Origin: an uncultured bacterium
GTDB lineage: Bacteria > UBP6 > UBA1177
Assembly (NCBI GenBank): GCA_947305505.1
Contig: CAMZDX010000001.1
Coordinates: 22,621-86,620 of the forward strand
Reading direction: 5' to 3'
DNA: 64,000 nucleotides
Positions 307 through 60,380 of the stretch are shown here, in pieces. The notes below the pieces were generated by a model, which had not been told where the DNA came from, searched no databases, and saw nothing but the letters and a program-made list of their open reading frames with translations. The translations under genes were made by a program, and so were the position numbers. The first letter of the stretch is position 1; every line of letters starts with the position of its first letter.

Positions 307-1371
307 TTACCAAGCCGGTTCAAGAGAAATATTAAAGTGATCAACAATTGCAGAATTAATAGTCAGACTACCAAGGCTGAACCATTGAAATTTATGCTCA
401 AAGCATCCGATCTCGTCATTTGAAGATAATGTGTCGGAGCTTGTATCGCCGCCTACAACATCTTCGTCGTAAAGACAATAAAAGATTTTGTCTGTTTTGG
501 CTGAAAACTCTATTGTCGTGCTTTTGTTCCACGTAACAGAAGTTGAATCCTCACCCGAGTTTGTTCTAAAGACCTCTGTACCGTTGATTTTTACAACTGC
601 AAAAAGATCCGGCAGACCGCCTGCCGCATCCCATGTTTCACCGTCAGCATTTTTTTCAGCAACTTTTGCGTCTATAAAAGTGACTATCCATTTTTTGCCC
701 CACGGACTCTGGCATGAGCCCTGATAGTAAAACAAACCTTCGGCGCATTCCTCACCAGAATCATCATTACCGTCAGGAACAGTAAATCCGCAAGTTTCCA
801 TTTCTTGTGAACAGTTGCTGTATGCACAGTCTGAAAATTCTTCACTTGTTGCATCCGAGCAGTTGTCTATCCAACAGTTATACATTGCGTAAAATTGACG
901 CTGACCGGTTTCAGAGCCGTTGTCCACACATCTTTGCGCACATGCGTTGTCTGCACAATCAGCGTAGCAGCTGTAAATAGACGTGCATGACAAGTTCAAT
1001 GAATCGTCACATTTTCCTGTAGACGAATTGCAGCCGTAAACGCAGTAATCATCATAACTCCAGTAACCGTTATAACAAGAGTAGGAATAAGAGCCGTCAC
1101 ACTTATATTCCCCTGAAGAACATTCTGAAGAAGCAGTTTGGCTGTTATCACATTTTCCAGTCCATGAATCGCAATAATCACAACGTTCTGAAAGCATCCA
1201 AATCAAATCACTGCCTGAATAGCCGCAGTAATAGGAATCTCCGTATTTGCAGACATGATCTCCGTAACTGCATTCCCTATAAGAACCTTCATCGTTACTG
1301 CCGCTTCCGCCGCATGAAACAGTCAGAAACACCACCGCAAAAAGAGCTGCGCAAACAAGAATTTTTTTCAT
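307..1371 (-). CDS. Secreted Cys-rich lipoprotein with C-terminal C2-like (Ca-dependent membrane-targeting-like) beta-sandwich domain
   Basis: Lipoprotein signal MKKILVCAALFAVVFLTVSCGG. The N-terminal half is extremely Cys/Tyr/Ser/Asp rich. The C-terminal ~130 aa (WIVTFIDAKV...PDLFAVVKINGTEVFRT...SVTWNKS...IFYCLYDEDVVGGD) shows the spacing pattern of C2 domains. Confidence 0.7.
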   Translation of the reverse strand: MKKILVCAALFAVVFLTVSCGGSGSNDEGSYRECSYGDHVCKYGDSYYCGYSGSDLIWMLSERCDYCDSWTGKCDNSQTASSECSSGEYKCDGSYSYSCYNGYWSYDDYCVYGCNSSTGKCDDSLNLSCTSIYSCYADCADNACAQRCVDNGSETGQRQFYAMYNCWIDNCSDATSEEFSDCAYSNCSQEMETCGFTVPDGNDDSGEECAEGLFYYQGSCQSPWGKKWIVTFIDAKVAEKNADGETWDAAGGLPDLFAVVKINGTEVFRTNSGEDSTSVTWNKSTTIEFSAKTDKIFYCLYDEDVVGGDTSSDTLSSNDEIGCFEHKFQWFSLGSLTINSAIVDHFNISLEPAW

Positions 1372-1440: not shown

Positions 1441-1914
1441 TTATCTTTTAACCAGCTTTTCTTTAGTAATATCAATTGGTTCCCCACTGACAAGAATCGA
1501 ATGGAAAGTTTCGAGCTCCTTCAGAGCGGATTCACTTTTTTCCTTCATTGCCTGAAGCTCTGCGCGAAGCCGTTCGTACTTTTTTTCGAGCTCAGCCTTA
1601 TTGAAATCTTTGTCTTTGGCAAGAATCCTGTAAGGCTGAAATTCCCTATTGTCATCCATCGACTTTCCGAAGCACGACATATAAGGTTTCAGAAAACAGA
1701 GGTTTTCCACCAGCACAACAGCATCGGCATCAAGCAGGAACTTTTCTTCCCGTCTGCCGAAATCGCGCTCAGGCCCTGCAACATGAAACCTTTTGTCGAA
1801 ATCTTCCTTGTTTTTGATGATGTCACGGATCCAGTTGGCGAGCTTTTCGGGATTTTTATAACCGAGTGATCTCACCAAATCAATCAAAATCATAACACCT
1901 GTTTTTTTCGTCAT
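1441..1914 (-). CDS. Hypothetical protein (157 aa, C-terminal coiled coil)
   Basis: Long ORF with coding-like composition; no recognisable motif. Confidence 0.55.
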   Translation of the reverse strand: MTKKTGVMILIDLVRSLGYKNPEKLANWIRDIIKNKEDFDKRFHVAGPERDFGRREEKFLLDADAVVLVENLCFLKPYMSCFGKSMDDNREFQPYRILAKDKDFNKAELEKKYERLRAELQAMKEKSESALKELETFHSILVSGEPIDITKEKLVKR

Positions 1915-2300
1915 TTTGTCTCCCGGGTTTACAAATATAGACTTACCCTGTTTGAAAAAAATGCTACCATTTTGGTATGCAATTTTTTTGTTTCACCGTA
2001 TTCGGGAACGAAAAGAGGCAGAAAAGAGAAAACAATACCTTAAAATGCTCTTCACCCTTTTACGATAAAACAAATTCAAGTGTGATGCTGAATAAAAATG
2101 ACTGTTTATACCCGATAAACAACCATCCGAAGTCACAAAAAACTTTTAAGCTTTCCATAACTTCGTTATCTGCCGGCAAAATGTATGCCGTTAGCGACAA
2201 GCGGGAAGCATTCCCAGATCGCACAAATAACATCTGCTACTTATCAGCAACAATAAACGCGGAATTGTAGTGATTTTTCAGAAAAAGACAAATTTTTCCC

Positions 2301-4373
2301 TTAATTTTTCGGGTAATTTATTTTGACTTCTTTGCTTTTGAGGTTCTGCGCTGAAACCCAGTCGAAATCTATGCCAAGACTTTTCAAGTGTGCGACTCTG
2401 TACCACCACCACGCATTGAGAAGTGCTCTTTTTCTCGAGCCGGAATCAAACTTTCCATTGATTTTGCCGATGCGTTCGAGAGTCTTTTCCGCCGCTTCTC
2501 TCACATCCTTGTCGATATCATTGTTTTTCAAGTGGTTGAAAACTTTGCAGTTGTTGAATCCGAGATTGACTCTCAAATCTCCAGCCGCTTCGCAGAAAGC
2601 CTCTCTCCAGAGCGGATGCGGCTCGATCACCGTTATGTCGTAACCTTTCTTAAACTCTTCCGGCACATCTTCCGGGTTTTCCTTACGTTTGTTTATTGCA
2701 TAGTCATCCGCCGATTTGAGCTGTCCGGCAAGGTGCTTGAACCACTCTTCGCACACTTCTGCCGCTTTTTCGCTTTCCAGCGAACCGAGGAACTGCGTTA
2801 TGCGCAGAGGCACAAACCCCCAGAGATAGCAGTCATACCCGTAGTGTTTCATCTCAATCGAATACGCCTGCTCTTTAAGATTCCTGAGAATCGAAAGCAT
2901 GGGCTTGACCGCTTTCCACGCACCGAAAGAATCTCTCAAGAAAAAAACGGCGGTATCAAAAAACAGACTTGTGAGATACGATTCCGGATCGGCAACACCT
3001 TGGATTTCCACAGGTTCTCCGGCATAATAGTCAGAAGGTTTTCCGCCGTTTTTCGCTATTTTGGCAAGTTCTCTCAAAAAATTATCAATATCCTTTTTCA
3101 ATTTCTCTCTATCGATATCCGTTTCCGGAAGATCAGGAATGACCACTATTTCAGCTTTTTTGAAAATCGATCTCGCCTGCTCAACAACAACAAGCTGCTG
3201 AAAAAGTTCTGGAAGTTCTTTGAACCACTTGGTTTTAACTATTTTTTCGCGAAGAAAAATTTCAAGGAGAAACTGTTGGATCTCATCGGATCCCGTCGCC
3301 CCCAAGCCACAGTAGTCCTGGCATTTTCCTACCAAAACATCTGCGACTCCGGATGCAAAGTAAGCAGCGTTTTCCAAATCCTCGATTTTTTTAACCTCCC
3401 TTTCGGCAATCCATTGAATTACACTTCTTTCAGAGTCCGGATCGAAATTTCTCATCGCACTAAAAAAGAGACTGGAAAGGCTTGATTTAAGACTTATATT
3501 TGTTTTTATCACCTCATTTGAAAAGAGAATTTCTGCAAATTTTTTTCCGACAGACGGCTGAAAAATACTGAATTCTTTTTGTTCCGGTGCGTTTTTTATT
3601 TTCAGCGATTTGAACAAGCCGCTGTAAAACCCGCTGCCGTATATATAAAGAATCATATAAAAATCTTCGAAAGTAAATTCATTTTGTCCCAAGATTGCCC
3701 TAAAATAATCTGTATTGCTCAGCAAAGAAGAAAAAACCTTATAAAAACATAATGTTGCATTGTTATAAATTTCAGTTTTGCCCCCATCAGAAGATTCATA
3801 CCGGCGCAGATCTTGGATCGCTCTTGCCGCGAACTGATACAGCTCGCATATATCGCTGAATTTATTAATTTTTTCAGCGTCATCGTGTTTAAACATTTCA
3901 AAAAGGCAGTAAGATTTTTGGATTTTGCTCCTACCTTCTTCATTAAAGTCATACCATAAGATAAAATATCTGATGAAATCATCCCTGATCCCGTCAAATT
4001 CAACCGAATAATTCGGCGTGATCATACTCTTAAACTTACCTTTTCTGACTTTGTCAAACTCGGAATAATCTATTACCGCTGTCGGCAAAACTATATAATA
4101 AAAGATTCTTAAGACACTTTCCTTATCAAGCGAATCACCGTCAAACCAAATGTTTTTATTCCAATCGGCATTGCTTTTTGCAATTTTCAATAATGATGCC
4201 GCTTCTTCATCACTCATCAGTTCTGTAATAGTTTCTGTCAGTTCCTCCTTTTTATCCTCGCAGGTGCGGAGATGTGCTTTCTTCATCATTTCCAGACACC
4301 TTGAAACAATTTTCCTTATTTTATTTTTTTTTTCATCAGATTGGTTGATTAAATAAGTCATCATATTCTCCAT
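2301..4373 (-). CDS. Large hypothetical protein, paralog B (690 aa) with C-terminal HEAT/PBS-lyase-like repeat; partner of the radical SAM cluster
   Basis: 690-aa ORF paralogous over its full length to ORF 6356..8404. The C-terminal ~330 aa are near-identical. Carries a ...DKDVREAAEKTLERIG... HEAT-like motif. Shares a strand with the radical SAM gene and lies 22 nt downstream of it. Confidence 0.75.
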   Translation of the reverse strand: MENMMTYLINQSDEKKNKIRKIVSRCLEMMKKAHLRTCEDKKEELTETITELMSDEEAASLLKIAKSNADWNKNIWFDGDSLDKESVLRIFYYIVLPTAVIDYSEFDKVRKGKFKSMITPNYSVEFDGIRDDFIRYFILWYDFNEEGRSKIQKSYCLFEMFKHDDAEKINKFSDICELYQFAARAIQDLRRYESSDGGKTEIYNNATLCFYKVFSSLLSNTDYFRAILGQNEFTFEDFYMILYIYGSGFYSGLFKSLKIKNAPEQKEFSIFQPSVGKKFAEILFSNEVIKTNISLKSSLSSLFFSAMRNFDPDSERSVIQWIAEREVKKIEDLENAAYFASGVADVLVGKCQDYCGLGATGSDEIQQFLLEIFLREKIVKTKWFKELPELFQQLVVVEQARSIFKKAEIVVIPDLPETDIDREKLKKDIDNFLRELAKIAKNGGKPSDYYAGEPVEIQGVADPESYLTSLFFDTAVFFLRDSFGAWKAVKPMLSILRNLKEQAYSIEMKHYGYDCYLWGFVPLRITQFLGSLESEKAAEVCEEWFKHLAGQLKSADDYAINKRKENPEDVPEEFKKGYDITVIEPHPLWREAFCEAAGDLRVNLGFNNCKVFNHLKNNDIDKDVREAAEKTLERIGKINGKFDSGSRKRALLNAWWWYRVAHLKSLGIDFDWVSAQNLKSKEVKINYPKN

Positions 4374-4394
4374 TTTTTATTGAATCCAACACTG

Positions 4395-5687
4395 TTACGC
4401 CGCTGCAGCTTTCGGATATTCCGAAAGCAGACATGCAATTTTTCTCATCTCCTCGATATCGTGAGCCGGATTGTCGCAAACTTCAAGAATGCCCAAGTCA
4501 TTCGGTTTCACTTTTAATCCGAAACCATGATATTCGTCAAACATTTCAGTTCCTCTGTAGATCTGGAGCGGGAACGCCGTTATTTTAGAAAATCCGAATA
4601 TTTTCAGCAAATTGATATCATTTCCGAAAGATTCTGCCGTCTGATAAGGCAATCCGTAAATAAGTGTGATTTCCGTCCTGATTCCGCGTTTTGCCACTTC
4701 TTTAAGTTTTTCGATCACAATCCTGTTGTCTCCGCCGCGGTTGATAACCGCAGTAACATTGTTGTCAAGCGACTGCACTCCGATTTCGAAGATGATGTTC
4801 GGCATAGTCTCTGCAATATCAAAATATTCGTCCGTAAGCATTTCAGGGCGAATCTGTAAGGAAACATCAGCCATTATTTTCAATTTTTTCACAAACTTCA
4901 AAAACTCAAGACTGATTCCCTTAAAACCAACGCGCCCGTCATTGAAATAAGGATCGAGAACATTGATTTTTCTCACTTTTGCAACCTTGAAAAGCATCAA
5001 CTCCTGCCTGTGGGTTTCCATACAACCGACACAGAAAACCTTTTGCTCAGGATTGCGGTGGCGGCAGAACGAACAGTTGAAAAGACATCCGCGTCTGAGT
5101 TCCATCCTGACCGTCATCCCCTCTGTCATCGGAATAAGACCGGACAAATACGGCGAAGTCAACTTCTCGAATACAGGAAGATCCTTTATGAGAGGATTCC
5201 CGCTCTTTTCAGCACGGGAAAGATACTCTCCAAGATTCTCGAATACTTTTTCTCCGTAAGATTCAATGAAAAAATCGGCAAAAGGATACTCTTTTTTGAG
5301 CGTTTCAAGCCCTCCGCACACCATCGGTCCGCCCATAACGATAATCGGGCGTTTTTGGCAGCTGCCGAGAATCGCCATCGTCTTTTTAAAAAGCTCATCG
5401 CTCCATGCAAAAACGCTGAAAGCCGCGATATCGCAGCCGTTCTCGATGACTTTTTTTGCAATAGAAACAGCTGTTTTGCCATAATCAATACAGAATTTTC
5501 CAAGATTTTCACTAAAATGTCCGTTCAAATCGTAAGTCAAAGTTTCAATGGTGCCGTTGTTTTTTCCCTGCCTGAACGCATTGACCAAACAGGAAACACC
5601 GTAAGGAGTCCTTACTTCGTCAGAACGGAAGAAATTCGTTGAAACGAGAAGAACTTTCAAATTTTTTAATGAATTATATTTATTCAT
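4395..5687 (-). CDS. B12-binding (class B) radical SAM domain protein
   Basis: CX3CX2C motif (RGCLFNCSFCRH). N-terminal Rossmann-like cobalamin-binding region (KVLLVSTNFF...PIIVMGGPMVCG). Start refined to ATG 5685-5687 (MNKYNS...), which has a GGAG RBS 9 nt upstream; the track ORF extends to 5744 via an alternative start. Confidence 0.8.
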   Translation of the reverse strand: MNKYNSLKNLKVLLVSTNFFRSDEVRTPYGVSCLVNAFRQGKNNGTIETLTYDLNGHFSENLGKFCIDYGKTAVSIAKKVIENGCDIAAFSVFAWSDELFKKTMAILGSCQKRPIIVMGGPMVCGGLETLKKEYPFADFFIESYGEKVFENLGEYLSRAEKSGNPLIKDLPVFEKLTSPYLSGLIPMTEGMTVRMELRRGCLFNCSFCRHRNPEQKVFCVGCMETHRQELMLFKVAKVRKINVLDPYFNDGRVGFKGISLEFLKFVKKLKIMADVSLQIRPEMLTDEYFDIAETMPNIIFEIGVQSLDNNVTAVINRGGDNRIVIEKLKEVAKRGIRTEITLIYGLPYQTAESFGNDINLLKIFGFSKITAFPLQIYRGTEMFDEYHGFGLKVKPNDLGILEVCDNPAHDIEEMRKIACLLSEYPKAAAA

Positions 5688-5713
5688 TTTCAACTCCAAA
5701 AATCCAAAGTTTA

Positions 5714-5741
5714 CTAAAACTCCCGCAGAAAACTGCGGGAG
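5714..5741 (-). terminator. Hairpin (CTCCCGCAG-aaaa-CTGCGGGAG) + short U-tract between the RelE-like gene and the radical SAM gene; possible attenuator or weak terminator
   Basis: Perfect 9-bp inverted repeat seen in the sequence, followed on the minus strand by TTTTAG. Confidence 0.35.
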
Positions 5742-5747
5742 CACTGC

Positions 5748-5984
5748 CTACCGACCATGTTTTTTCACGTTTTTTATCTTGTTTTCGTAAGCGTCGTGAC
5801 TGCCGACGAAAAATGTAATGCCGTCAGTCAGAAGCCTGTAGTTCATGCTGAGTCTGAAAGAATAGAAATCATTTTTCAGACCAGCCAGCTTTTTCCATCC
5901 GTGCCTTATGCCTTTCAGGAAAAGTTCCATAATTTTTGCAGCTTTGTTCAAAAACTGTTGAGGGATGTCACTTAATCTTTTCAT
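5748..5984 (-). CDS. RelE/ParE-superfamily toxin-like small protein (78 aa); no cognate antitoxin ORF detected
   Basis: C-terminal pattern ...GLKNDFYSFRLSMNYRLLTDGITFFVGSHDAYE... matches the RelE/YafQ/ParE signature (Y-x-hR-h-x-x-YRhhY...h-VG-H/R-x-x-Y). GGAG RBS 6 nt upstream of the ATG. Confidence 0.6.
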   Translation of the reverse strand: MKRLSDIPQQFLNKAAKIMELFLKGIRHGWKKLAGLKNDFYSFRLSMNYRLLTDGITFFVGSHDAYENKIKNVKKHGR

Positions 5985-6355
5985 TTTATACTCCTAGGTA
6001 TGAAAAGTGTTTGCTAACATCTTCAGACAAGACAACAACCACCCGGTTATTGACTATTTTTTGAAAGCTTTGCAGAGAAAAACAAGACTCTTTGATAACT
6101 TAAAGCCTCGCACGCCAATCTGAGCTTCCGACTCAGTTGGTTAAGTCTATCGATCCAGCCAATGCGACCGGTTACAACCAAAATAGTTGTTACTGAAATT
6201 TGAACAACTGTTCCACACAGCTCGATAGAATCTCCTACTCGCTATTCAAAGAACTGAAGATCAAAAACACCGCAGGATATAGTTGCATAAAAATAAAGTC
6301 AAGACGGAAAATGAATTTTTTTAATTTTCTTGCTCTAGTCAGAATGACGGTAATT

Positions 6356-8404
6356 TTAATAATTTTTCGGGTAATTTATTTTGACTTCTTTGCTTTTGAG
6401 GTTCTGCGCTGAAACCCAGTCGAAATCTATGCCAAGACTTTTCAAGTGTGCGACTCTGTACCACCACCACGCATTGAGAAGCGCTCTCTTTCTCGAACCG
6501 GAATCAAACTTTCCCTTGATTTTTTCAATGCGCTCGAGAGTTTTTGCAGCGGCCTCTCTCACATCTTTGTCAATATCATTTTTTTTCAAATGATTGAAAA
6601 CCGACTTGCAGCCGGAATTTACTCTCAGATCTCCGGCCGCCTCGCAGAAAGCCTCTCTCCAGAGCGGATGAGGTTCAATGATTGTTATGTCGTAACCTTT
6701 CTTAAACTCATCAGGCACATCTTCCGGGTTTTCCTTACGTTTGTTTATTGCAAAATCGTCAGCCGATTTGAGCTGTCCGGCAAGGTGCTTGAACCACTCT
6801 TCGCACACATTTGCAGCTTCTTCCCCCTCAAGCGAACCGAGCAGAGGCGTTATGCGCAGCGGTACAAAAGCCCAAGTGTAGCTGTCATACTCGTAATGTT
6901 CCATATCGATCGAATATGCCTGCTCCTTGAGATTTCTAAAGATCGCAAGCATAGGTTTTGCAGCTTTCCATGTACCGAAAGAATCCCTCAAAAATGCTAC
7001 TGCCGAATCAAAAATCAAGGTCGTGAGATACGATTTCGGATCGGCAACTCCTTGGATTTCCACAGGTTCTCCGGCATAATAATCGGAAGGTTTTCCGCCG
7101 TTTCTTGCAATTTTTGAAAGGTCAGCAAGAAATTTGTCTACATCCTTTTTCAATTTCTCTTTATCGATATCCGTTTCTGAAAGATCAGGAACAACCACTA
7201 TTTCAGCTTTTTTGAAAATTGATCTCGCCTGCTCGACAATGACAATCTGCTGAAAAAGTTCCGGCAGATTTTTGAACCACTCTTTCCCGACAATTTTTTC
7301 GCGGAGAAAAATTTCAAGGATAAGCTGCTTTGCTTCATGCGATTTTATATTTTCCGGTTTGCACGCCCATTCACATCTGGTGACAGCCGCATTAGCAACA
7401 TCCGATGCAAAGTACACAGCATATTCCAAATCCCCGATCTTCTTTATTTCTCTTTCGGCGATATGTTTGACTACCGGCATTTGATATTCGGAATCAAACT
7501 TAATTATCGCAGAGAAAAAGATTTTGTTCTCATAGCTGCATTCCATACTTTCAAATACATCACCGCAGGCAAGGTAATTCTTCATTTTCTCGTTTGAAAA
7601 CATGATTTCAGCAAGTTTGGGTCTTACCCCCGGTTCAAAAACATAAAATTCGAATTTTTCCGGACACTCCATTATTTCATGCAAATTGTACAAATAATCC
7701 CTGTCAAATATATGAATAAAGCCCAAAAGAGCTTTCGGAGCAAGCGCATTGAAAGTTGCCTCAAAAAAATCACAGTCGTTAAACAAACTCTTAAAAACAT
7801 TGTAAAAACACAAAGTTTTAGTGTTATAGGCCTCATTATACAGCGAATCGTCTGACTTCTCCCAACACAAAAAATCGATTTCGCTTGCCGCAAATTTATA
7901 CAATTCAGGAATATTGCTGAAATTTTTGATTTTTTCTAAAGGATCGGAGTTGAAAGCTTCGAGAACATACTCCTGTTTGTGAAAATCTTCTCTGCGTTTC
8001 ACAGCAAAATTGTCAAACAAAATAAAGTACCTGAGGAAATCAGCCCTCACTGTGTCAAAATTGGGACAATCCAAAATTACCGTAGGCAGAATGTCATAAT
8101 AAAAACTTTTCAGGAACCTTTCATAGTCACTGATTTTATCATCAAATTTCCAAAATTTGTCCTCAAAGCCAAAATATTCCGCTCCCTGACCTTTTTCCAA
8201 AAGTTTACCGAAATTCGTAATTTCAAGCAGATCTTCCACCACAGTGTCGGTCAAAAGTTTCTCCATGACCTTGATCAGCTCTTCGATTTCAGCTTCACAG
8301 CAACATTTGGCATGTACTCTCTCAAGCCTTTCCTTCAATTTTGAAATAATACGCCTGATGTTTCCTTCTTTGGTTTCTTTTTCGAATTTAGGAAATTTAC
8401 CCAT
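6356..8404 (-). CDS. Large hypothetical protein, paralog A (682 aa), HEAT-like C-terminus
   Basis: Paralog of 2301..4373. The last ~1 kb of the gene (6356-~7260) is ~90% identical at nucleotide level to 2301-~3300. Confidence 0.75.
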   Translation of the reverse strand: MGKFPKFEKETKEGNIRRIISKLKERLERVHAKCCCEAEIEELIKVMEKLLTDTVVEDLLEITNFGKLLEKGQGAEYFGFEDKFWKFDDKISDYERFLKSFYYDILPTVILDCPNFDTVRADFLRYFILFDNFAVKRREDFHKQEYVLEAFNSDPLEKIKNFSNIPELYKFAASEIDFLCWEKSDDSLYNEAYNTKTLCFYNVFKSLFNDCDFFEATFNALAPKALLGFIHIFDRDYLYNLHEIMECPEKFEFYVFEPGVRPKLAEIMFSNEKMKNYLACGDVFESMECSYENKIFFSAIIKFDSEYQMPVVKHIAEREIKKIGDLEYAVYFASDVANAAVTRCEWACKPENIKSHEAKQLILEIFLREKIVGKEWFKNLPELFQQIVIVEQARSIFKKAEIVVVPDLSETDIDKEKLKKDVDKFLADLSKIARNGGKPSDYYAGEPVEIQGVADPKSYLTTLIFDSAVAFLRDSFGTWKAAKPMLAIFRNLKEQAYSIDMEHYEYDSYTWAFVPLRITPLLGSLEGEEAANVCEEWFKHLAGQLKSADDFAINKRKENPEDVPDEFKKGYDITIIEPHPLWREAFCEAAGDLRVNSGCKSVFNHLKKNDIDKDVREAAAKTLERIEKIKGKFDSGSRKRALLNAWWWYRVAHLKSLGIDFDWVSAQNLKSKEVKINYPKNY

Positions 8405-17012: not shown

Positions 17013-18402
17013 CTTTGTGCAAACCGAACTCTTCTATTCTCTTATCCAGTGTCGGGCGCGTTATTCCAAGCAGTTCCGCCGTTTTTCCTTTGTGCCAGTT
17101 CGTTTGTTTAAGCACGAATTCTATATAATTTCTTTCGACATCGCGAAGAGGCGTCAGTTTTTCCGGCATAACTATCTCGTCAAGCGTATTGTGCTTTGCC
17201 TTTTGTTCCGTCTGCTCTTTTTTCTCGGGAACAAGAAATGAAAAACTGTCACGGGTCAGGATCTTGTCCTTCGCCTTTATCGAAGCGCGCTGGATCGTGT
17301 TTTCAAGTTCGCGGATATTGCCGGGCCACGTGTGCGATCTGAGATAGTCGACAGCTTCTTTCGTAATGCTCTGGATCGAAGTGTTCATAATAAAATTCGC
17401 CTTTTTTATAAAGTGCAGAATGAGCATTTCGAGATCGCTTATGTGGTTTCTGAGCGGCGGCACCGAAATCGTGATGACATTGAGACGGTAGAAAAGATCT
17501 TCGCGGAATTTCCCTTTTTCAACAAGTTCCTTCAGATTTTTGTTCGTAAGGGCGACTATTCGGCCGTTGAAGCGCTTTTTTTCAGTCGCACCGATCGGAT
17601 AGAAATCCTTTTCCTGAATGACGCGCAGAAGTTTCGTCTGAAATTCGTACGGCATTTCGGAAATCTCGTCTAGAACGAGCGTTCCCCCTTTCACAGCTTC
17701 AAGTTTGCCTTCGCGGTTTGCATTCGCGCCGGTAAAAGCACCTTTGACGTATCCCATGAGTTCGCTTTCGATAAGGTTTTCCGGCACTGCGGCGCAGTTT
17801 ATCGCAATAAAAGGCTCTTCCGGCACAGTGTTTTCGTGGATCGCTTTCGCAACCATCTCCTTTCCCGTTCCGCTTTCGCCCGTCACAAGAATTGTCGCCT
17901 TGTTCCCTTTTAAAGAACTTATCGTTTTGTAGATATCTATCATCAGCGGATCTCTGCCGATTATAGTATCTTTAAACGGCGTGTTGTCTGGTTCGATAAA
18001 GTATGCGACGCGCTCCTTCAAAGTGAGCGTTTCGAGGGCGCACTCGACTGTCGAGCGGAGTTTTTCAAGAGGAACAGGCTTCGACAAAAATTCGTAAGCG
18101 CCTAAATTCATAGCCCTGACCGCCGCATCCAAATCGCCGTATGCCGTCAGCATTATGATTAAGGGAACATCTTTTTTATCAAATGTTTTATTCAGATCTG
18201 CAAGCAGATCCAAGCCCGATTTCACCGGCATGTTTATGTCAAGCAGAACAAGGTCGGGGCGTTCCTTTTCTATCATGATATAGCCGGCACGCCCGTCGTC
18301 CGCGGTAAAAACAGTGTAGCCTTCAGACTCAAGATACTTCTGATAGCTCCGCAGAATTGAAAGATCGTCGTCAACTATGAGTATTTTCCATTTGTTTTTC
18401 AT
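17005..18402 (-). CDS. Sigma-54-dependent response regulator (NtrC/Fis family: REC-AAA+-HTH)
   Basis: REC domain (ILIVDDDLSILRS...D56-like LVLLDINMP). Sigma54 AAA+ motifs (GESGTGKE; GAFTGA; ESELMGY). C-terminal Fis-type HTH. RBS GGAGG. Confidence 0.85.
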   Translation of the reverse strand: MKNKWKILIVDDDLSILRSYQKYLESEGYTVFTADDGRAGYIMIEKERPDLVLLDINMPVKSGLDLLADLNKTFDKKDVPLIIMLTAYGDLDAAVRAMNLGAYEFLSKPVPLEKLRSTVECALETLTLKERVAYFIEPDNTPFKDTIIGRDPLMIDIYKTISSLKGNKATILVTGESGTGKEMVAKAIHENTVPEEPFIAINCAAVPENLIESELMGYVKGAFTGANANREGKLEAVKGGTLVLDEISEMPYEFQTKLLRVIQEKDFYPIGATEKKRFNGRIVALTNKNLKELVEKGKFREDLFYRLNVITISVPPLRNHISDLEMLILHFIKKANFIMNTSIQSITKEAVDYLRSHTWPGNIRELENTIQRASIKAKDKILTRDSFSFLVPEKKEQTEQKAKHNTLDEIVMPEKLTPLRDVERNYIEFVLKQTNWHKGKTAELLGITRPTLDKRIEEFGLHKDV

Positions 18403-19994
18403 TTTTCAGCCTCCTGCGATTCGGTATTTTCACAAAGATAGCGTTCAATGATACCGACTTCATCCGGCGAAAGTTTGAAAAGCTGGTAGACAAAACCGTC
18501 AAGCCTTTCGGAAACAGCCGTCGTTTCAGCTTTCAAAAGATCCTTATCTGCCGCAAGAATCATATTGTCGTTGAGTTCGCGTATCCGCAGAACCTGCTCG
18601 GAAATTATGTGCTGAAGGTTCTTTCCGCAGAGGAAAAAAGGAATTTTGTTGAAATTCTTCTTCAAAAATTTGTTGTGGTGCGGAAATTTTATTTTGTAGA
18701 AAAATTCGACAAGTTTTGAATTGAGGTAACCTTCGGCAAAAAACATGTCGATATCGGAAGTACGCGGAATGACCGCCGCGACATCGTTCATAAAGTAAAG
18801 TCCGTCCTCGTCGTAAGAAAAAACAGGTTTGACCGAAAGGTATCTCATCAACAGTTTTCTGCTTTCAAAATTGCCGGCGGCCGGAATCTGGAAAAAGGCT
18901 TCCGGATCAGGATAAATGTATCTTTTAACCTTGAAAGTATTGAACGGAACGATCTCTTTCGACGTTACAAGCGGATGGTACGCGGCATTTTTTCTCAAAG
19001 GTTCGATAAGATCGTCTATCGGCGCATTCCTGAACATTCCGAGGAAAAACCTGAAGTAGTCTCCGCATGTCGCTCCGGCACGCTCTTCGATTTTCGAAAC
19101 AAGAGCCAGCTGATCTGCGGTAACGCCGTCGTTGAAAGTGTAAAGATGGTTGAAATCAAGGCACGACCTCTCAAGTTCAAGCACTTTTCCGTCGGAACAG
19201 TCGCGGATAACGACATTCTGCGGAAGCGCCGGAATGCGGCCTTCGACCTTTTTGAGCAGTTTCATCTGCAGATAATCGGCAAAACGGTCGATTTCTTCAG
19301 CTTCGAAATGTGCATAAAGGCTTTTTTTATCTTTTCTGGTGAGCGGAGACGAAAGGAAAGTCTTTTTAACAATAAGATAAAAAACAGCGTCGTATTTCAG
19401 CAGAACCGACAAGGTGTTGAGCAGACTTTCGCTGACAAAAGGATAATTTACCGAATCATCGACAACAATGTCGAAATTCTGCGGCCGCAGCTGCGTGTTG
19501 TCGTTGTTTATAAGGTCGAACAAAGTCGTCTGTATCGAAATCGAAAGGTCGGCTTCACGCGAAACCGGATAGTATTCAATGTTTTTGAAAGGTGATTCCT
19601 TTGTCCTTTCGGAACAGTAACCGATAAAAAGCTGAACTTTTTTCTCGGTTTCATAAGGCAGAATGATGGAGTCGGTTAAAAGAAGCACCGCCTGTTTCGG
19701 CTGAACCTTGATATTCTGCACTTCAAACACTCTCTCTGCGGGAAGTGAGAGAATCGCGCTGACAGAAAGCGACATAACGAAATCTCTCCCGAGCCTGTCG
19801 GAAAATTCATTGTTTAAAATTGAAAAATCGCTTTTGGTTATACCGACCAGAGTGTTAGCCGCAGGACGCTTGTTCACAATCGAAAGCCAGAATTTGTTCA
19901 GCAGGAAGGCATAAGGATCGGAGTTTACAGAATTTTGCTTTATAAAAGCGTCGATTTCGTAAAAAAGTTTTACAAGTTTTTTTCTTTTATCCAT
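18399..19994 (-). CDS. Hypothetical protein (531 aa), first gene of the 531aa-NtrC-HK operon
   Basis: Long ORF with an AGGTGA RBS. Its stop overlaps the regulator start (ATGA). No motif recognised. Confidence 0.6.
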   Translation of the reverse strand: MDKRKKLVKLFYEIDAFIKQNSVNSDPYAFLLNKFWLSIVNKRPAANTLVGITKSDFSILNNEFSDRLGRDFVMSLSVSAILSLPAERVFEVQNIKVQPKQAVLLLTDSIILPYETEKKVQLFIGYCSERTKESPFKNIEYYPVSREADLSISIQTTLFDLINNDNTQLRPQNFDIVVDDSVNYPFVSESLLNTLSVLLKYDAVFYLIVKKTFLSSPLTRKDKKSLYAHFEAEEIDRFADYLQMKLLKKVEGRIPALPQNVVIRDCSDGKVLELERSCLDFNHLYTFNDGVTADQLALVSKIEERAGATCGDYFRFFLGMFRNAPIDDLIEPLRKNAAYHPLVTSKEIVPFNTFKVKRYIYPDPEAFFQIPAAGNFESRKLLMRYLSVKPVFSYDEDGLYFMNDVAAVIPRTSDIDMFFAEGYLNSKLVEFFYKIKFPHHNKFLKKNFNKIPFFLCGKNLQHIISEQVLRIRELNDNMILAADKDLLKAETTAVSERLDGFVYQLFKLSPDEVGIIERYLCENTESQEAEK

Positions 19995-20115: not shown

Positions 20116-21810
20116 TTATTCAGCTGCGCAGAAACCTGCAACACATGAACCAGCGATACCGCCGCAGTCTTCGTCGCCTGCACATATTTTCTTGCATACG
20201 CCTTCATCTTCAGCATATTCGCTCTCGCATTCACATGCAGTGTGTGCATCGTTAAGCACTTTGTGATCTTCTGCATTGCAGACAGGATCTGCTACACAGT
20301 TGTCATCGACAGCATGGAAGTTTGCCTTGCAAACACATGCAGTGTGTTCTTCGTTGAGTTCTTTGTTATCTTCTGCATTGCAGACAGGATCTGCTACACA
20401 GTTGTCATCGACAGCATGGAAGTTTGCCTTGCAAACACATGCAGTGTGTTCTTCGTTGAGTTCTTTGTTATCTTCTGCATTGCAGACAGGATCTGCTACA
20501 CAGTTGTCATCAACAGCATGGAAGTTTTCTGCACAAACACAGCCGTCTTTTGCTTCGTTCTGAACTTTGTGAGCTTCTGCGTCGCAAACTGCGTCTGCTT
20601 CACAAGCTTCACCTTTTACGTGGAAGTTTGCCATGCATTCACATGCATCTTTTGCTTCGTTAAGCTGTTTGTGCTCTTCTTCTTTGCATTCAAGAGTCTG
20701 AGCTTTTGCTTCGCATTTGCCTTCTTTAAGTTCGAAACCTTCTTTGCAAACGCATTCACCGTCTTTCTTTTCAGCGTTCGGATCGGTGCAGCCTTCTTCA
20801 GCAGCTTTTTCTTCGCATTTGCCTTCTTTTTCTTCGTAACCGGTCATGCAAACACAAGCATCTTTTGCTTCGTTAAGCTGTTTGTGCTCTTCTTCTTTGC
20901 ACTCGATAGCCGGTTCTTCGTCTGTCGGACATTCGATCTCTTTGCCGGAGCCGCTTGCGTAAGAAACGCATGTGCAGAGGTCAGCTTCTGTTGCTACATA
21001 ACCTTCAGCGCCTTCTTCTACGCCTTCGTTGTAAGCAGCCTGGATGTCTTCGAACTTGTCGGTAAGTCTAGCATCGATTCCGAATTTAATGGTCTGGCCG
21101 GGTTCGATGGTTCCGTTTTTGCCGTAGCAGTACTGGAAAGAACCTTCCGGCATGTCACCGTCAGAAACCTGTGTCGGAGCATAGGTGTTGATTGCGAGTG
21201 TGCACATTTTGTACCAGTCAATCTGCTGACCTTTAACATGAAGGTCAAGAGAAGCAACGTTGATCATCGGAGCGAAAGGAGCTTTTCCATTCGGGAAAAC
21301 TTCAGGATATTCTTCTTTGTACTGATCAACAACTTCCATCCACTGATCAGGAACAATTGCCTGGATCTGAACGTTCGGATAGCCGCTGCCGCCGTAACCC
21401 ATACCGATAAGAACGATTGATTTCCAGCCGTTCGTAAGGGTAGCGTTGAGGAAGTAGGACTGAGACTGTTTAAGGTTGTAGTCCTGATTGTCCTCAAGAT
21501 AAAGTGACGTTTTGGTCATTGCCGTCATTTCGACATCTTCAGCATTTTCATCATTGATGGTACCAGCACCTTTGAAGGTGTAGTAGTTGTCAAACTTTGA
21601 TGAAGCATAAGCATCATCAATTTTGCAGTCTACTGTCGGCTCTTCATCCTGTTCTTCATCAGGATTTTCAACAGGATCGGTGTCATTTGTCGGATTTGTC
21701 GGATCGTCGTTGTCGTTGCTCGGTTCCGGATCTGTGCTGCTTGAACCGCCGCAGCTTACAACAAAGAGGGCGATAATCATCGCCGCAAGGATTGCTGTGA
21801 ATTTCTTCAT
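20116..21810 (-). CDS. Secreted lipoprotein with N-terminal globular domain and C-terminal array of ~34-aa Cys-containing (EGF-like) repeats
   Basis: Signal MKKFTAILAAMIIALFVVSCGG. C-terminal repeats C-x-AE-x-x-K-x-LNE-x-x-x-AC-x-C-x-x-NFH-x-x-x-x-x-C, with the last three copies identical. GGAG RBS. Confidence 0.7.
   Translation of the reverse strand: MKKFTAILAAMIIALFVVSCGGSSSTDPEPSNDNDDPTNPTNDTDPVENPDEEQDEEPTVDCKIDDAYASSKFDNYYTFKGAGTINDENAEDVEMTAMTKTSLYLEDNQDYNLKQSQSYFLNATLTNGWKSIVLIGMGYGGSGYPNVQIQAIVPDQWMEVVDQYKEEYPEVFPNGKAPFAPMINVASLDLHVKGQQIDWYKMCTLAINTYAPTQVSDGDMPEGSFQYCYGKNGTIEPGQTIKFGIDARLTDKFEDIQAAYNEGVEEGAEGYVATEADLCTCVSYASGSGKEIECPTDEEPAIECKEEEHKQLNEAKDACVCMTGYEEKEGKCEEKAAEEGCTDPNAEKKDGECVCKEGFELKEGKCEAKAQTLECKEEEHKQLNEAKDACECMANFHVKGEACEADAVCDAEAHKVQNEAKDGCVCAENFHAVDDNCVADPVCNAEDNKELNEEHTACVCKANFHAVDDNCVADPVCNAEDNKELNEEHTACVCKANFHAVDDNCVADPVCNAEDHKVLNDAHTACECESEYAEDEGVCKKICAGDEDCGGIAGSCVAGFCAAE
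20270..20575. repeat. 102-bp tandem repeat array inside the lipoprotein CDS (two perfect copies + one near-perfect, flanked by diverged copies)
   Basis: Units begin at about 20270, 20372 and 20474 (period 102 nt = 34 aa). Copies 1-2 are identical at DNA level. Confidence 0.8.
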
Positions 21811-58883: not shown

Positions 58884-60380
58884 ATGAACGATATTTTTAG
58901 TATAGTTAAAGAGTTGTGTTCATACCCGGCGGAAAGGGAATGGTTTGAATTCAAGCACAACTGGTTTGAGCCTGAACAACTCGGTCAGTATATTTCCGCA
59001 TTATCCAACAGTGCGGCTATGGAAGGCCGCAGCAAAGCGTATTTTGTATGGGGAATAGACGACAAAACACACGATATTGTCGGAACGGATTTTGATTCTG
59101 ACTGCAACGTAAAAAATGAACCTTTGAAACATTTTCTTTTTCGCGGACTTTCGCCGGATGTAAATTTTATTTTTGAAGAAGCTGTAATCGACGGCAAAAG
59201 AATCGTGCTTCTTACGATACCGGCAGCGAAAACTGTTCCGGTATCCTTCTCAGGCGAGCGTTTTATCAGAATAGGAAGCAGCAAGGAGAATTTGCGGAAA
59301 TATCCCGAAAAAGAGTCGTATCTTTTCGAGGTTTTGCGTCACGGCTTGCCGACGATAGAAAACACTCCTTCTCAATATCAGGATCTTACATTTGAAAAAC
59401 TGCTTATTTACTACGGTGCGAAGGGGATAAGGCTGAATGAAGATACCTTCAAAAAGAATCTCGGCTTTTTTACTTATGACGGCAAATACAACATTCTTGC
59501 CCAGCTCATGGCGGACAATTCTCATTTGCCGTTAAGATTCGCAATATTTTCAGGGAAAACCAAAACATCTACATTGTTTTCCGTGCGTGAGTTCGGGTAT
59601 CAGTGCCTTTTGTATTCCCTTGACGAAGTTCTGCGTTACGGTGATGTTTTGAATATAATTCAGGCAGACGAGCGCAACCGCATAGTGGAGCGGAAAGAAA
59701 CGGCTTTGTTTGAAAACGATGCTTTCCGCGAGGCAATGATAAACGCTTTTGTGCACAACAAGTGGGTGGAAGGAAACGAACCCATGATTTCTGTGTTTTC
59801 CGACAGAATTGAGATACTTTCCCGCGGAACATTCCCGCCGGAACAGACATTGGAAGGCTTCTTTGCAGGAGAATCGGTTCCTGTAAACCAGAAACTTTCG
59901 GAGATTTTTCTGCAGTTGCACATAAGCGAAAAGACAGGGCGCGGAGTTCCGAAAGTAATCGAAAAATACGGCAGAGATGCTTATGAATTCCGGGAAAATT
60001 CGATTGTTGTAAAAATTCCGTTCAGATGGATCAATGTTTTAGGCGAAGACAATGCTCCCGAAGAGGTGAAACAGTTTAAAGTCAAAGGTGCAACTACCCC
60101 AAAAACTATACCAGAAACTATACCAGAAACTATACCAAAAACTATACCAAAAACTATACCAAAAACTATACCAAAAAACACTCAGGAAAAGATACTGAAA
60201 CTGATTGCTGAAAATCCTCGTATAACTCAAAAACAGATGGCTGAAGCCTGCGGTATTTCATTGGCAGGAATAAAGTGGCAGGTAATGCAGATGAAAGAAA
60301 AAATTGAATTTGTCGGCTCACGCAAAACGGGTTATTGGAAAATATTGTCTGAAACTGATAAAACATCAAATAATGATTGA
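58884..60380 (+). CDS. AlbA_2 ('divergent AAA'/Schlafen-like) domain protein with C-terminal winged-HTH and internal (TIPE/TIPK)6 repeat
   Basis: N-terminus ...PAEREWFEFKHNWFEPEQLGQYISALSNSAAMEGRSKAYFVWGIDDKTHDIVGT... is typical of AlbA_2/RecG-C-terminal-like putative DNA-binding proteins. C-terminus ILKLIAENPRITQKQMAEACGIS... is an HTH. Confidence 0.7.
   Translation: MNDIFSIVKELCSYPAEREWFEFKHNWFEPEQLGQYISALSNSAAMEGRSKAYFVWGIDDKTHDIVGTDFDSDCNVKNEPLKHFLFRGLSPDVNFIFEEAVIDGKRIVLLTIPAAKTVPVSFSGERFIRIGSSKENLRKYPEKESYLFEVLRHGLPTIENTPSQYQDLTFEKLLIYYGAKGIRLNEDTFKKNLGFFTYDGKYNILAQLMADNSHLPLRFAIFSGKTKTSTLFSVREFGYQCLLYSLDEVLRYGDVLNIIQADERNRIVERKETALFENDAFREAMINAFVHNKWVEGNEPMISVFSDRIEILSRGTFPPEQTLEGFFAGESVPVNQKLSEIFLQLHISEKTGRGVPKVIEKYGRDAYEFRENSIVVKIPFRWINVLGEDNAPEEVKQFKVKGATTPKTIPETIPETIPKTIPKTIPKTIPKNTQEKILKLIAENPRITQKQMAEACGISLAGIKWQVMQMKEKIEFVGSRKTGYWKILSETDKTSNND
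60105..60176 (+). repeat. 12-bp tandem repeat x6 (ACTATACCAGAA x2, ACTATACCAAAA x4) encoding TIPETIPETIPKTIPKTIPKTIPK
   Basis: Perfect in-frame tetrapeptide repeats seen in the sequence, in the linker between the AlbA_2 domain and the HTH. Confidence 0.8.

Follow-up and report, generated by a model that had tools for sequence, protein, structure and literature searches.

Introduction

Viperins are, to our knowledge, the sole radical S-adenosylmethionine (SAM) enzymes shown to make antiviral nucleotides. The genes surrounding prokaryotic viperins (pVips) follow a published syntax in which lone hicA and relE genes adjoin the pVip gene (PMC10865869) and a nucleoside monophosphate (NMP) kinase is found within three genes of ∼12% of bacterial viperins (bioRxiv 10.1101/2023.09.13.557418). 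The PADLOC candidate system PDC-M51 is composed of a radical SAM enzyme with a B12-type domain (component A) and a thymidylate-kinase-like protein (component B). Described here is a cluster of four genes located between positions 2301 and 8404 of a 64,000-nucleotide stretch of contig CAMZDX010000001.1 (assembly GCA_947305505.1) from an uncultured bacterium of the UBP6 lineage. This entire stretch will be referred to as the window. The cluster encodes a radical SAM enzyme of the PDC-M51A family, a small ParE/RelE-like protein, and two large helical proteins, paralogs A and B. By analogy with the viperin loci, we lean, by a modest degree, toward the view that it represents a chromosomal viperin-like anti-phage (conflict) module that modifies nucleotides and is built around the radical SAM enzyme.

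The cobalamin-type radical SAM enzymes TokK, CysS, TsrM, and OxsB contain a Rossmann-like N-terminal domain and a radical SAM barrel. The model of the window enzyme displays the same arrangement, although the amino acid sequence identities are only 12-19%. The 430 residues of the enzyme do not include the C-terminal helical domains found in TokK, CysS, and OxsB, and its genomic context is conflict-like rather than that of a biosynthetic gene cluster. OxsB catalyzes the ring contraction of deoxyadenosine phosphates and thus converts a nucleotide into an antiviral analogue. The small protein resembles the toxins of type II RelE/ParE modules in its strand motif and, through its homologues, in its profile type, but it has no adjacent antitoxin and in every examined locus is coupled to the radical SAM gene. 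With respect to the paralogs, the closest described counterparts are the repeat-protein sensors and scaffolds (TPR, HEAT, and ankyrin) of nucleoside triphosphate (NTP)-dependent conflict systems (eLife 2020, PMC7159879). Both are all-α solenoids with a variable region, distant relatives of the large proteins co-occur with MoxR/VWA, AAA, and RNase effectors, and other lineages place a TPR protein beside, or an ankyrin protein a few genes upstream of, the radical SAM gene. The paralogs differ in having no fused NTPase and in carrying a specific C-terminal domain of ∼230 residues that lies outside Pfam.

Organization of the cluster and the radical SAM enzyme

The gene order proposed in the initial annotation agrees with the open reading frame (ORF) calls. 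All four genes lie on the minus strand, beginning with paralog A (682 residues, 6356..8404). A gap that measures 371 nt (5985..6355) separates it from the ORF for the ParE/RelE-like protein (78 residues, 5748..5984). The ORF for the radical SAM enzyme extends from a GTG codon (4395..5744), but translation probably starts from the ATG at 5687 (4395..5687, 430 residues). Indeed, a GGAG Shine-Dalgarno sequence is positioned 7 nt upstream of this codon, and the homologues are likewise 430 residues in length and begin with MNKYN. The distance from the ParE-like gene to this ATG is 60 nt and contains a hairpin. The stop codon of the radical SAM gene is separated by a 21-nt spacer from the start of paralog B (690 residues, 2301..4373). 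A terminator-like hairpin with a 17-bp stem, identified in a consensus scan, is located 3′ of paralog B (2128..2165, minus strand) and probably marks the end of the operon. Paralog A, which precedes the operon, is probably transcribed separately.

The radical SAM enzyme matches the PADLOC model for PDC-M51A (PDLC04689) over its full length, with residues 8-423 aligned to positions 3-413 of the 420 in the model (E=9.7e-72, 240 bits). The cysteines of the CxxxCxxC motif (Cys 201, Cys 205, and Cys 208) are invariant among 29 homologues, and the Pfam Radical_SAM family is matched at 3e-11 (44.1 bits versus a cutoff of 29.5). Searches against NCBIfam gave weak matches to many radical SAM families and to no housekeeping family at its cutoff, and the Pfam and NCBIfam scans revealed no SPASM domain. 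An AlphaFold2 model of the enzyme has a mean confidence (pLDDT) of 91.8. According to Foldseek, its closest structural relatives are TokK and CysS (TMq 0.70), followed by MgmA, OxsB (0.67), and TsrM, with a range of 0.61-0.70. MiaB, RimO, and AprD4 are further structural relatives. A sequence profile run against the Protein Data Bank likewise identified CysS and TokK (∼3e-28), whereas the viperins appeared at ∼1e-6 via the shared radical SAM core alone. The B12-type architecture that had been claimed for the enzyme is supported by both the profile and the TokK/CysS-like fold of the model. The PADLOC pVip model gave no match at E≤1, and the NCBIfam viperin model TIGR04278 scored 30.8 bits versus a cutoff of 450 bits. 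On the basis of its motif, profile, and fold matches, the enzyme is of the class B type and is not a viperin. Its predicted N-terminal cobalamin-type Rossmann domain suggests that the chemistry is probably a methylation or a rearrangement rather than a dehydration to a 3′-deoxy-3′,4′-didehydro-NTP (ddhNTP).

These assignments require a revision of the initial suggestion that the cluster fits no described defense architecture. The radical SAM enzyme corresponds to component A of PDC-M51, and a toxin-like gene beside a radical SAM gene, whether or not a nucleotide kinase accompanies them, is the arrangement published for pVip loci (PMC10865869; bioRxiv 10.1101/2023.09.13.557418). Like those loci, the window cluster combines a radical SAM core with a directly adjacent orphan gene for a protein with a putative RNase-toxin fold. 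It differs in that its enzyme is not a viperin and is predicted to carry the N-terminal cobalamin-type Rossmann domain. No description of a large helical partner was found in the viperin papers that were available. With PDC-M51 the window shares the full length of component A, and with the proteobacterial loci that contain both components it shares the ParE-like gene upstream of the radical SAM gene. Instead of the component B kinase, however, there are one or two α-solenoid proteins, and the two-gene PADLOC definition of PDC-M51 would not call the window locus.

Neighbors of the radical SAM family in other lineages

A scan for the radical SAM enzyme, limited to one genome per species, yielded 57 loci, in which ORFs were called and the neighboring proteins were clustered. 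The closest named relatives are rumen metagenome-assembled genomes (MAGs) labeled "bacterium UBP6_UBA1196" and "uncultured Spirochaetales bacterium," which does not bear out the Fibrobacterota placement implied by the initial annotation. In eight loci, mostly gammaproteobacterial, a thymidylate-kinase-like protein of ∼200 residues adjoins the radical SAM enzyme, and in seven of these it is encoded downstream. It matches PF02223 (7e-24), PADLOC PDC-M51B (PDLC04690, 7.7e-75), and the VakA model (1.7e-31). In five of the eight (L034, L037, L044, L061, and L062), a ParE-like protein of ∼100 residues is encoded just 5′ of the radical SAM gene; in L054 an unrelated ORF of 61 codons occupies that position. 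The toxin-like and NMP-kinase neighbors match those published for pVips, and the PDC-M51A enzymes thus share the gene syntax of viperin loci, the NMP-kinase partner being present in some lineages of the family.

The gammaproteobacterial PDC-M51 loci extend beyond the two genes recognized by PADLOC. A protein of ∼220 residues that belongs to no family is encoded further upstream in L044, L054, L061, and L062, and beside it are proteins of 109-151 residues (three loci) or 259-299 residues (two loci). In L034 and L037 a trio of 898, 308, and 196 residues is found instead.

Other lineages place different proteins near the enzyme. In four Fibrobacter loci a HicA-like protein is encoded one to three genes upstream of the radical SAM gene (PADLOC 9.2e-14), and in three others an ankyrin-repeat protein lies further upstream. 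The Desulfobacterales loci contain a TPR protein together with a 476-residue protein, and those of Treponema a protein of ∼1,000 residues with no family. The recurring neighbors are specific partner families only. In a Bacteroidia MAG (L018, 7537-9744), a 735-residue fusion of a GT4 "conflict-system" glycosyltransferase with a radical SAM-SPASM enzyme is encoded directly 3′ of the PDC-M51A-family gene, such that two radical SAM enzymes occur within one putative conflict locus.

The paralogous helical proteins and their C-terminal domain

The two large proteins, designated as paralogs in the initial annotation, are indeed related, with an overall identity of 58% (405/702). The similarity is distributed unevenly: over the N-terminal ∼380 residues the identity is 39%, and over the C-terminal ∼310 it rises to 86%. 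As that annotation anticipated, they fall outside known families: profile searches of Pfam, NCBIfam, PADLOC, and PHROGs gave no match, and no solved structures resemble them beyond generic HEAT/ARM solenoids. They are α-solenoids, built of stacked helical hairpins, without a catalytic fold.

A word-indexed search of 5.8 billion proteins identified only 54 relatives. Each shares 42% identity or more, and the source in every case is an uncultured bacterium of the rumen or gut. Among the closer full-length members of this family the C-terminal halves are 72-89% identical (58-62% in the five most divergent), whereas the N-terminal halves are 30-86% identical and split into A-type and B-type lineages, both of which are represented by orthologues elsewhere. 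A comparison of A with B reveals saturation of synonymous sites in the N-terminal half, and in the C-terminal half the synonymous divergence (dS) is 0.5-1.0 and the nonsynonymous divergence (dN) about 0.05-0.1. As judged from these substitution patterns, A and B are old paralogs with a strongly constrained C-terminal half and a fast-evolving N-terminal half. A recent duplication or gene conversion as the source of the nearly identical C-termini is mostly rejected, given both the family-wide conservation of that half and its dS. Note that the last ∼240 nt of the two genes (2302..2543 versus 6360..6601) are 93% identical in DNA sequence, and the next 300 nt are 85% identical. This short segment may be a gene-conversion tract.

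The conserved C-terminal domain is encoded by ∼6359..7048 in paralog A and ∼2304..2996 in paralog B, both on the minus strand. The family was defined by our alignments A4 and A5. The A4 profile covers residues 460-686 of paralog B (E=1.8e-75) and residues 453-677 of paralog A (E=1.4e-70). An exhaustive profile search of 1.84 billion cluster representatives for the domain identified 332 proteins at E≤1e-3, of which 128 reach E≤1e-10; a word-indexed protein search with A4 gave only 15 proteins. Outside the close family the match is limited to the last ∼100-230 residues. The domain is located at the extreme C-terminus in 140 of 147 matches, and its carriers have a median length of 571 residues and reach 1,492. 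Ten of these carriers were found to contain no Pfam domain. Three motifs are invariant or nearly so across the ∼230 residues, namely E-P-x-P-x-W-R, N-D-P-D-x-x-V-R-x-A-A, and A-F/W-W-W-x-R-x-x-H. The C-terminal HEAT-like repeat noted initially is genuine and corresponds to the second of these: DKDVREAAEKTLERIG sits in the helix N-D-x-D-x-x-V-R-x-x-A, which is conserved throughout the family. The proposal that the system is lineage-specific holds for the full-length paralog family, but not for its C-terminal domain or for the radical SAM family, both of which are spread across phyla.

The genes adjoining the distant carriers link the domain to viperins. Domain-containing proteins are encoded upstream of pVips in four loci and of another PDC-M51A enzyme in one, and these carriers, from unrelated organisms, display 24-38% identity. 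In L071 the order is a large protein (978 residues), a small DUF4258 protein, and a pVip (PADLOC 2e-85), with 4-nt overlaps between the genes. L079 contains a large protein (1,086 residues), a 68-codon ORF, an NYN+OST-HTH RNase, a pVip (2e-71), and an AAA ATPase, and L090 a large protein (595 residues) followed by a partial pVip (5e-36). On the Vibrio olivae chromosome (L097), genes for proteins of 61 and 340 residues precede the domain protein (322 residues), a pVip (1e-93), and a convergent phage-type integrase. The PDC-M51A case, L089, consists of a large protein (586 residues), the radical SAM enzyme (1.5e-91), and a β-CASP RNase. In seven further loci the large protein accompanies NYN RNases, and in others MoxR/VWA or AAA ATPases. 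These context counts are lower bounds because many contigs end directly after the large gene. Viperins are rare genes, and four pVips among the ∼22 loci that were chosen for the domain alone is, in our judgment, far above chance. Even at a threshold of E≤10, the A4 profile did not detect the domain in the partners of the other radical SAM loci (the TPR, ankyrin, and 1,000-residue proteins).

The ParE-like protein and the leader RNA

The 78-residue protein scores 21.9 bits (E=1.7e-4) against Pfam ParE_like (PF24732), which has a cutoff of 24.4. Two gammaproteobacterial homologues that were scanned, encoded at the same position 5′ of the radical SAM gene, score 43.2 and 30.3 bits, and precomputed annotation of the homologues in L092 and L096 reads "ParE_like (weak)." The window protein and the gammaproteobacterial proteins of ∼100 residues fall into one BLAST cluster. 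A profile of this family detects a homologue upstream of the radical SAM gene in 16 loci, Gammaproteobacteria included, with E-values from 1e-21 to 3e-38. The alignment contains the RelE/ParE-type strand motif R-x-R-x-x-x-x-Y-R-L-L ... H-D-x-Y, and conservation extends along the full length of the protein (77% identity between the window and L001). These homologue scores and the alignment support the RelE/ParE-like assignment made at the outset. In every examined locus, across phyla, the family lies immediately upstream of this radical SAM family. There is no cognate antitoxin gene beside it, the radical SAM gene being located downstream, and a hidden antitoxin ORF in the 371-nt gap was rejected as no ORF there is conserved across eight loci.

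Within that gap a promoter-like element, TTGACT and TATCCT separated by 17 nt, was identified by a consensus scan (6274..6302, minus strand). Across eight loci the TTGAC.TT box is nearly invariant and is followed by a TATA-type box. Between the promoter and the ParE-like gene lies a non-coding 5′ leader of ∼283 nt (5985..6267, minus strand), delineated by conserved blocks and by folding. It is conserved across six loci and contains no conserved ORF. Its folding energy is -82.5 kcal/mol (z=-3.17 versus shuffled sequences), and the consensus structure is a multi-helix arrangement with 92% of the positions paired. Five base pairs have changed on both sides, a number reached in 6 of 500 shuffles, and the covariation score is 0.173 compared with ≤0.085 in slid controls. 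Some sequences contain a variable hairpin inserted at one site. The leader is probably structured, and the comparative support for this, which derives from two or three independent lineages, is suggestive. Searches with nhmmer located it solely in loci with the ParE-like and radical SAM genes. A cobalamin riboswitch, or any other known RNA, was considered and rejected since Rfam gave nothing in the leader at gathering thresholds or at E≤10. Nor does the leader consist of tandem repeats, as do the ToxI RNAs of type III systems. Its possible roles include that of an RNA antitoxin or of a new cis-regulatory RNA.

The hairpin reported between the 78-residue protein and the radical SAM enzyme is present in seven of eight related loci. 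In the window it has the sequence CTCCCGCAG-TTTT-CTGCGGGAG followed by TTTT (5716..5741, minus strand; the stem-loop itself spans 5741..5720). The stem contains 9-10 G+C-rich base pairs, and the 4-nt loop is either TTTT or GAAA.

Conservation and surroundings of the cluster

The linkage of the radical SAM gene to the large-protein gene, which the initial annotation had singled out as a point to be checked, has been retained in nine or more loci. Neither of the outcomes named in that annotation as refutations was observed. The order ParE-like protein, radical SAM enzyme, and large protein is observed in the window, L001/L003, L014, L015, L016, L092/L093, L094, L095, and L096. The complete four-gene layout recurs in a second genome (L092/L093), where a 743-residue family member holds the upstream position of paralog A and is followed by a 366-nt gap, the ParE-like gene, the radical SAM gene, and a 671-residue member; these large proteins are 50-60% identical to paralog B. 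The radical SAM enzyme is the best conserved protein of the cluster, with 79-100% identity within the lineage as compared with 42-100% for the large protein.

In L004-L009 the order at the syntenic site is DUF4130, large protein, a 157-residue protein, a ∼300-residue protein, and aconitase. In L094 the ParE-like and radical SAM genes lie between DUF4130 and the large protein. The pair is present in L094 and absent in L004 at one chromosomal site, and thus it behaves as cargo that is gained or lost. A 415-residue radical SAM protein together with DUF4130, which we take to be a widespread putative DNA-repair pair, occurs just upstream of the locus in L004-L009, L094, and L096. A functional link to this pair was rejected: its adjacency in L004-L009 is plain synteny, because the ParE-like and B12-type radical SAM genes intervene in L094. 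Other genes near the cluster in relatives encode HepT/MNT, Phd/YoeB, AAA-PDDEXK, and PDC-S01-like ATPases. The view that the cluster is not phage cargo is in accord with the searches, as viral contigs contained no relatives of our alignments A2, A3, or A5. A plasmid origin is likewise unsupported, since plasmids carry only distant DUF4080-type radical SAM enzymes and no homologue of the domain of the large protein.

Downstream of the cluster, ∼390 nt 3′ of paralog B and past the hairpin at 2165..2128, is an ORF for a 157-residue coiled-coil protein with no family match (1441..1914, minus strand). Homologues of 157-176 residues follow the large protein in L004-L009, L016, and L096, ORFs of 162-219 codons take this position in L092-L094, and the position is occupied with or without the ParE-like and radical SAM genes. 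Next is an ORF for a predicted cysteine-rich lipoprotein of 354 residues (307..1371, minus strand), in which Pfam places a C2 domain at the C-terminus (22.0 bits, equal to the cutoff); ORFs of ∼280-420 codons occupy its position in relatives. C2 domains are unusual in bacteria.

Some features lie farther from the cluster. Approximately 10 kb away, after a histidine kinase/sigma-54 response regulator pair, is an ORF of 531 codons (18399..19994, minus strand) with a TaqI-like C-terminal specificity domain (PF12950, 2.5e-11); it may represent a portion of a restriction-modification enzyme, or what remains of one. A 102-nt unit is repeated 4.5 times at 20232..20688 inside an ORF of 564 codons without a Pfam family, and a 12-nt unit (CCAAAAACTATA) is repeated 6.6 times with 97% identity at 60099..60177. 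No tRNA genes or Rfam families were detected within the window.

Discussion

In the module that we envisage, transcription would begin at the conserved promoter and proceed through the long structured leader into the ParE-like gene, the intergenic stem-loop would lower read-through into the radical SAM and paralog B genes, and the leader and hairpin together would set the expression levels. By radical/B12 chemistry the enzyme would convert a nucleotide into a polymerase-poisoning analogue, for example one that is C-methylated or rearranged, in parallel with ddhNTP synthesis by viperin and the ring contraction by OxsB. Housekeeping kinases would replace the dedicated NMP kinase of the proteobacterial versions. 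The ParE-like protein would be a second effector, arresting translation, RNA, or gyrase. The fast-evolving N-terminal halves of the solenoids would recognize an infection cue, and through their conserved C-terminal domain the solenoids would dock onto the effector module or gate it. With two diverged N-terminal halves, two specificities would be available and the recognition range would be wider. A variable N-terminal half joined to a conserved C-terminal half, as deduced from the alignments, fits such a sensor-plus-adaptor layout.

The specific nucleotide-analogue chemistry is a more tentative proposal than the module itself, and we regard it as less likely than not. It is drawn from the shared viperin-locus syntax, the dedicated NMP kinase in the sister loci, and the precedent of OxsB.

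Several observations weigh against a viperin-like, nucleotide-modifying module. Use of cobalamin is inferred from the modeled fold, and the Pfam B12-binding match is 25.4 bits, under the cutoff of 32.1. MiaB and AprD4 have similar N-terminal domains and, as far as is known, do not use cobalamin. TokK and CysS, the nearest relatives of solved structure, act as methylases on pantetheinylated small molecules and not on nucleotides. Neither PDC-M51B nor any kinase model matched the six window ORFs between 307 and 8404. No mention of PDC-M51 was found in the searchable literature, and it is apparently a candidate only. The contexts of the distant carriers derive from only ∼22 loci, many of them from one metagenome. 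Often these carriers are beside NYN, MoxR/VWA, or AAA genes with no radical SAM gene, and in L004-L009 the large protein occurs at the syntenic site without the ParE-like or B12-type radical SAM gene. The role of the large protein may therefore not be specific to radical SAM enzymes. A general enrichment of large ORFs beside the radical SAM gene was tested and rejected: those of at least 550 codons account for 19 of 164 adjacent same-strand ORFs and 59 of 520 distant ones (Fisher p=1). Finally, the housekeeping neighborhood described initially is correct, with panC, folK, der, and mltG in the flanks, and the cluster is not part of a defense island.

That setting is one reason to consider a housekeeping or stress-related modification of RNA or protein, in which the class B enzyme would methylate an rRNA, tRNA, or protein residue, the solenoids would be scaffolds that present the substrate, and the ParE-like protein would be a non-toxic adaptor that binds RNA or the ribosome. 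Among the structural relatives of the enzyme are MgmA, a methylase, and MiaB and RimO, which modify RNA. Partners elsewhere act on RNA (NYN, β-CASP, HicA, and RelE-like proteins), and the dN of the large protein attests to very strong purifying selection on its C-terminal half. A housekeeping function would not, however, be expected to have so patchy a distribution, in which close relatives differ at a single site by the presence or absence of the ParE-like and radical SAM genes. Nor does it account for the exchange of the radical SAM enzyme for genuine pVips beside the same partner domain, for its membership in a PADLOC defense-candidate family with a nucleotide kinase partner, or for the locus flanked by an integrase, and no NCBIfam housekeeping family was matched at its cutoff. 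We consider this explanation to be unlikely.

Rather unlikely as well is a toxin-antitoxin or addiction module, in which the ParE-like protein would be a toxin neutralized by the leader RNA or by the large protein, with the radical SAM enzyme as a passenger or regulator. The ParE/RelE-type profile invites it, as does the conserved structured leader directly upstream of a gene that has no protein antitoxin ORF and without which the leader is not found, and other toxin-antitoxin pairs occur nearby in relatives. A mere passenger would hardly be the best conserved member of the cluster (79-100% versus 42-100% for the large protein), nor would it be encoded immediately 3′ of the ParE-like family in all examined loci across phyla, and the leader is unlike the tandem-repeat RNAs of type III ToxI systems.

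Very improbable is a cassette for a ribosomally synthesized and post-translationally modified peptide (RiPP) or other natural product, whereby a peptide or small molecule would be the substrate of the B12-type enzyme, with the small protein as the precursor or a chaperone. TokK and CysS are antibiotic-pathway methylases and a small ORF does lie directly upstream of the radical SAM gene, but its product has a conserved fold (77% identity between the window and L001, with the ParE_like profile) and no leader-plus-variable-core layout. The best RiPP recognition (RRE/PqqD) match was only E=0.18 (Pfam, paralog A), the cluster lacks genes for proteases, transporters, nonribosomal peptide or polyketide synthases, and carrier proteins, and other lineages pair the enzyme or the large protein with kinases, RNases, and repeat proteins. 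The notion that the genes form no functional unit and are neighbors by inherited synteny in one narrow lineage, which the confinement of the full-length large-protein family to one rumen/gut MAG group and the partly syntenic flanks (DUF4130 upstream, the 157-residue and ∼300-residue proteins downstream) might suggest, is highly improbable and already disfavored by the distant domain carriers in unrelated organisms that are again beside pVip or PDC-M51A enzymes, the ParE-like/radical SAM linkage in Gammaproteobacteria, the tight spacing (21 nt here, 4-nt overlaps in L071), and the shared promoter, leader, and intercistronic hairpin.

A viperin-like conflict module thus remains the reading that we favor. 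It is not a categorically new system because PADLOC already catalogues the radical SAM family as a candidate, and viperin loci provide a published precedent for a toxin-like gene paired with a radical SAM gene. What appears to be new, as judged from the searchable literature, is the large-protein family and its C-terminal domain, the association of that domain with both pVips and PDC-M51A, the kinase-less architecture with one or two solenoid proteins, and the leader RNA. Speculatively, the domain might define a widespread sensor/adaptor partner family for radical SAM/nucleotide-analogue immunity that serves viperins and PDC-M51A enzymes interchangeably, with PDC-M51A making a new class of antiviral nucleotide by cobalamin radical chemistry (an NTP that is C-methylated or ring-rearranged, for instance) and the module gated by the orphan ParE-like toxin and the new leader RNA. 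We offer this broader proposal with reserve.

C-methyl and rearranged nucleosides are proven scaffolds for antiviral drugs. If the favored reading is true, a B12-type radical SAM family that occupies the genomic niche of viperin, with the same toxin-like neighbors, type of kinase, and large partner domain, would point to the production of further antiviral nucleotide analogues by bacteria. More than 300 uncharacterized protein clusters gain a name-worthy domain and a testable role, the published pVip-HicA/RelE link is extended to a second enzyme family, and a possible new regulatory RNA is flagged. The cluster also provides a compact three- or four-gene unit in which candidates of the PDC-M51 type may be tested.

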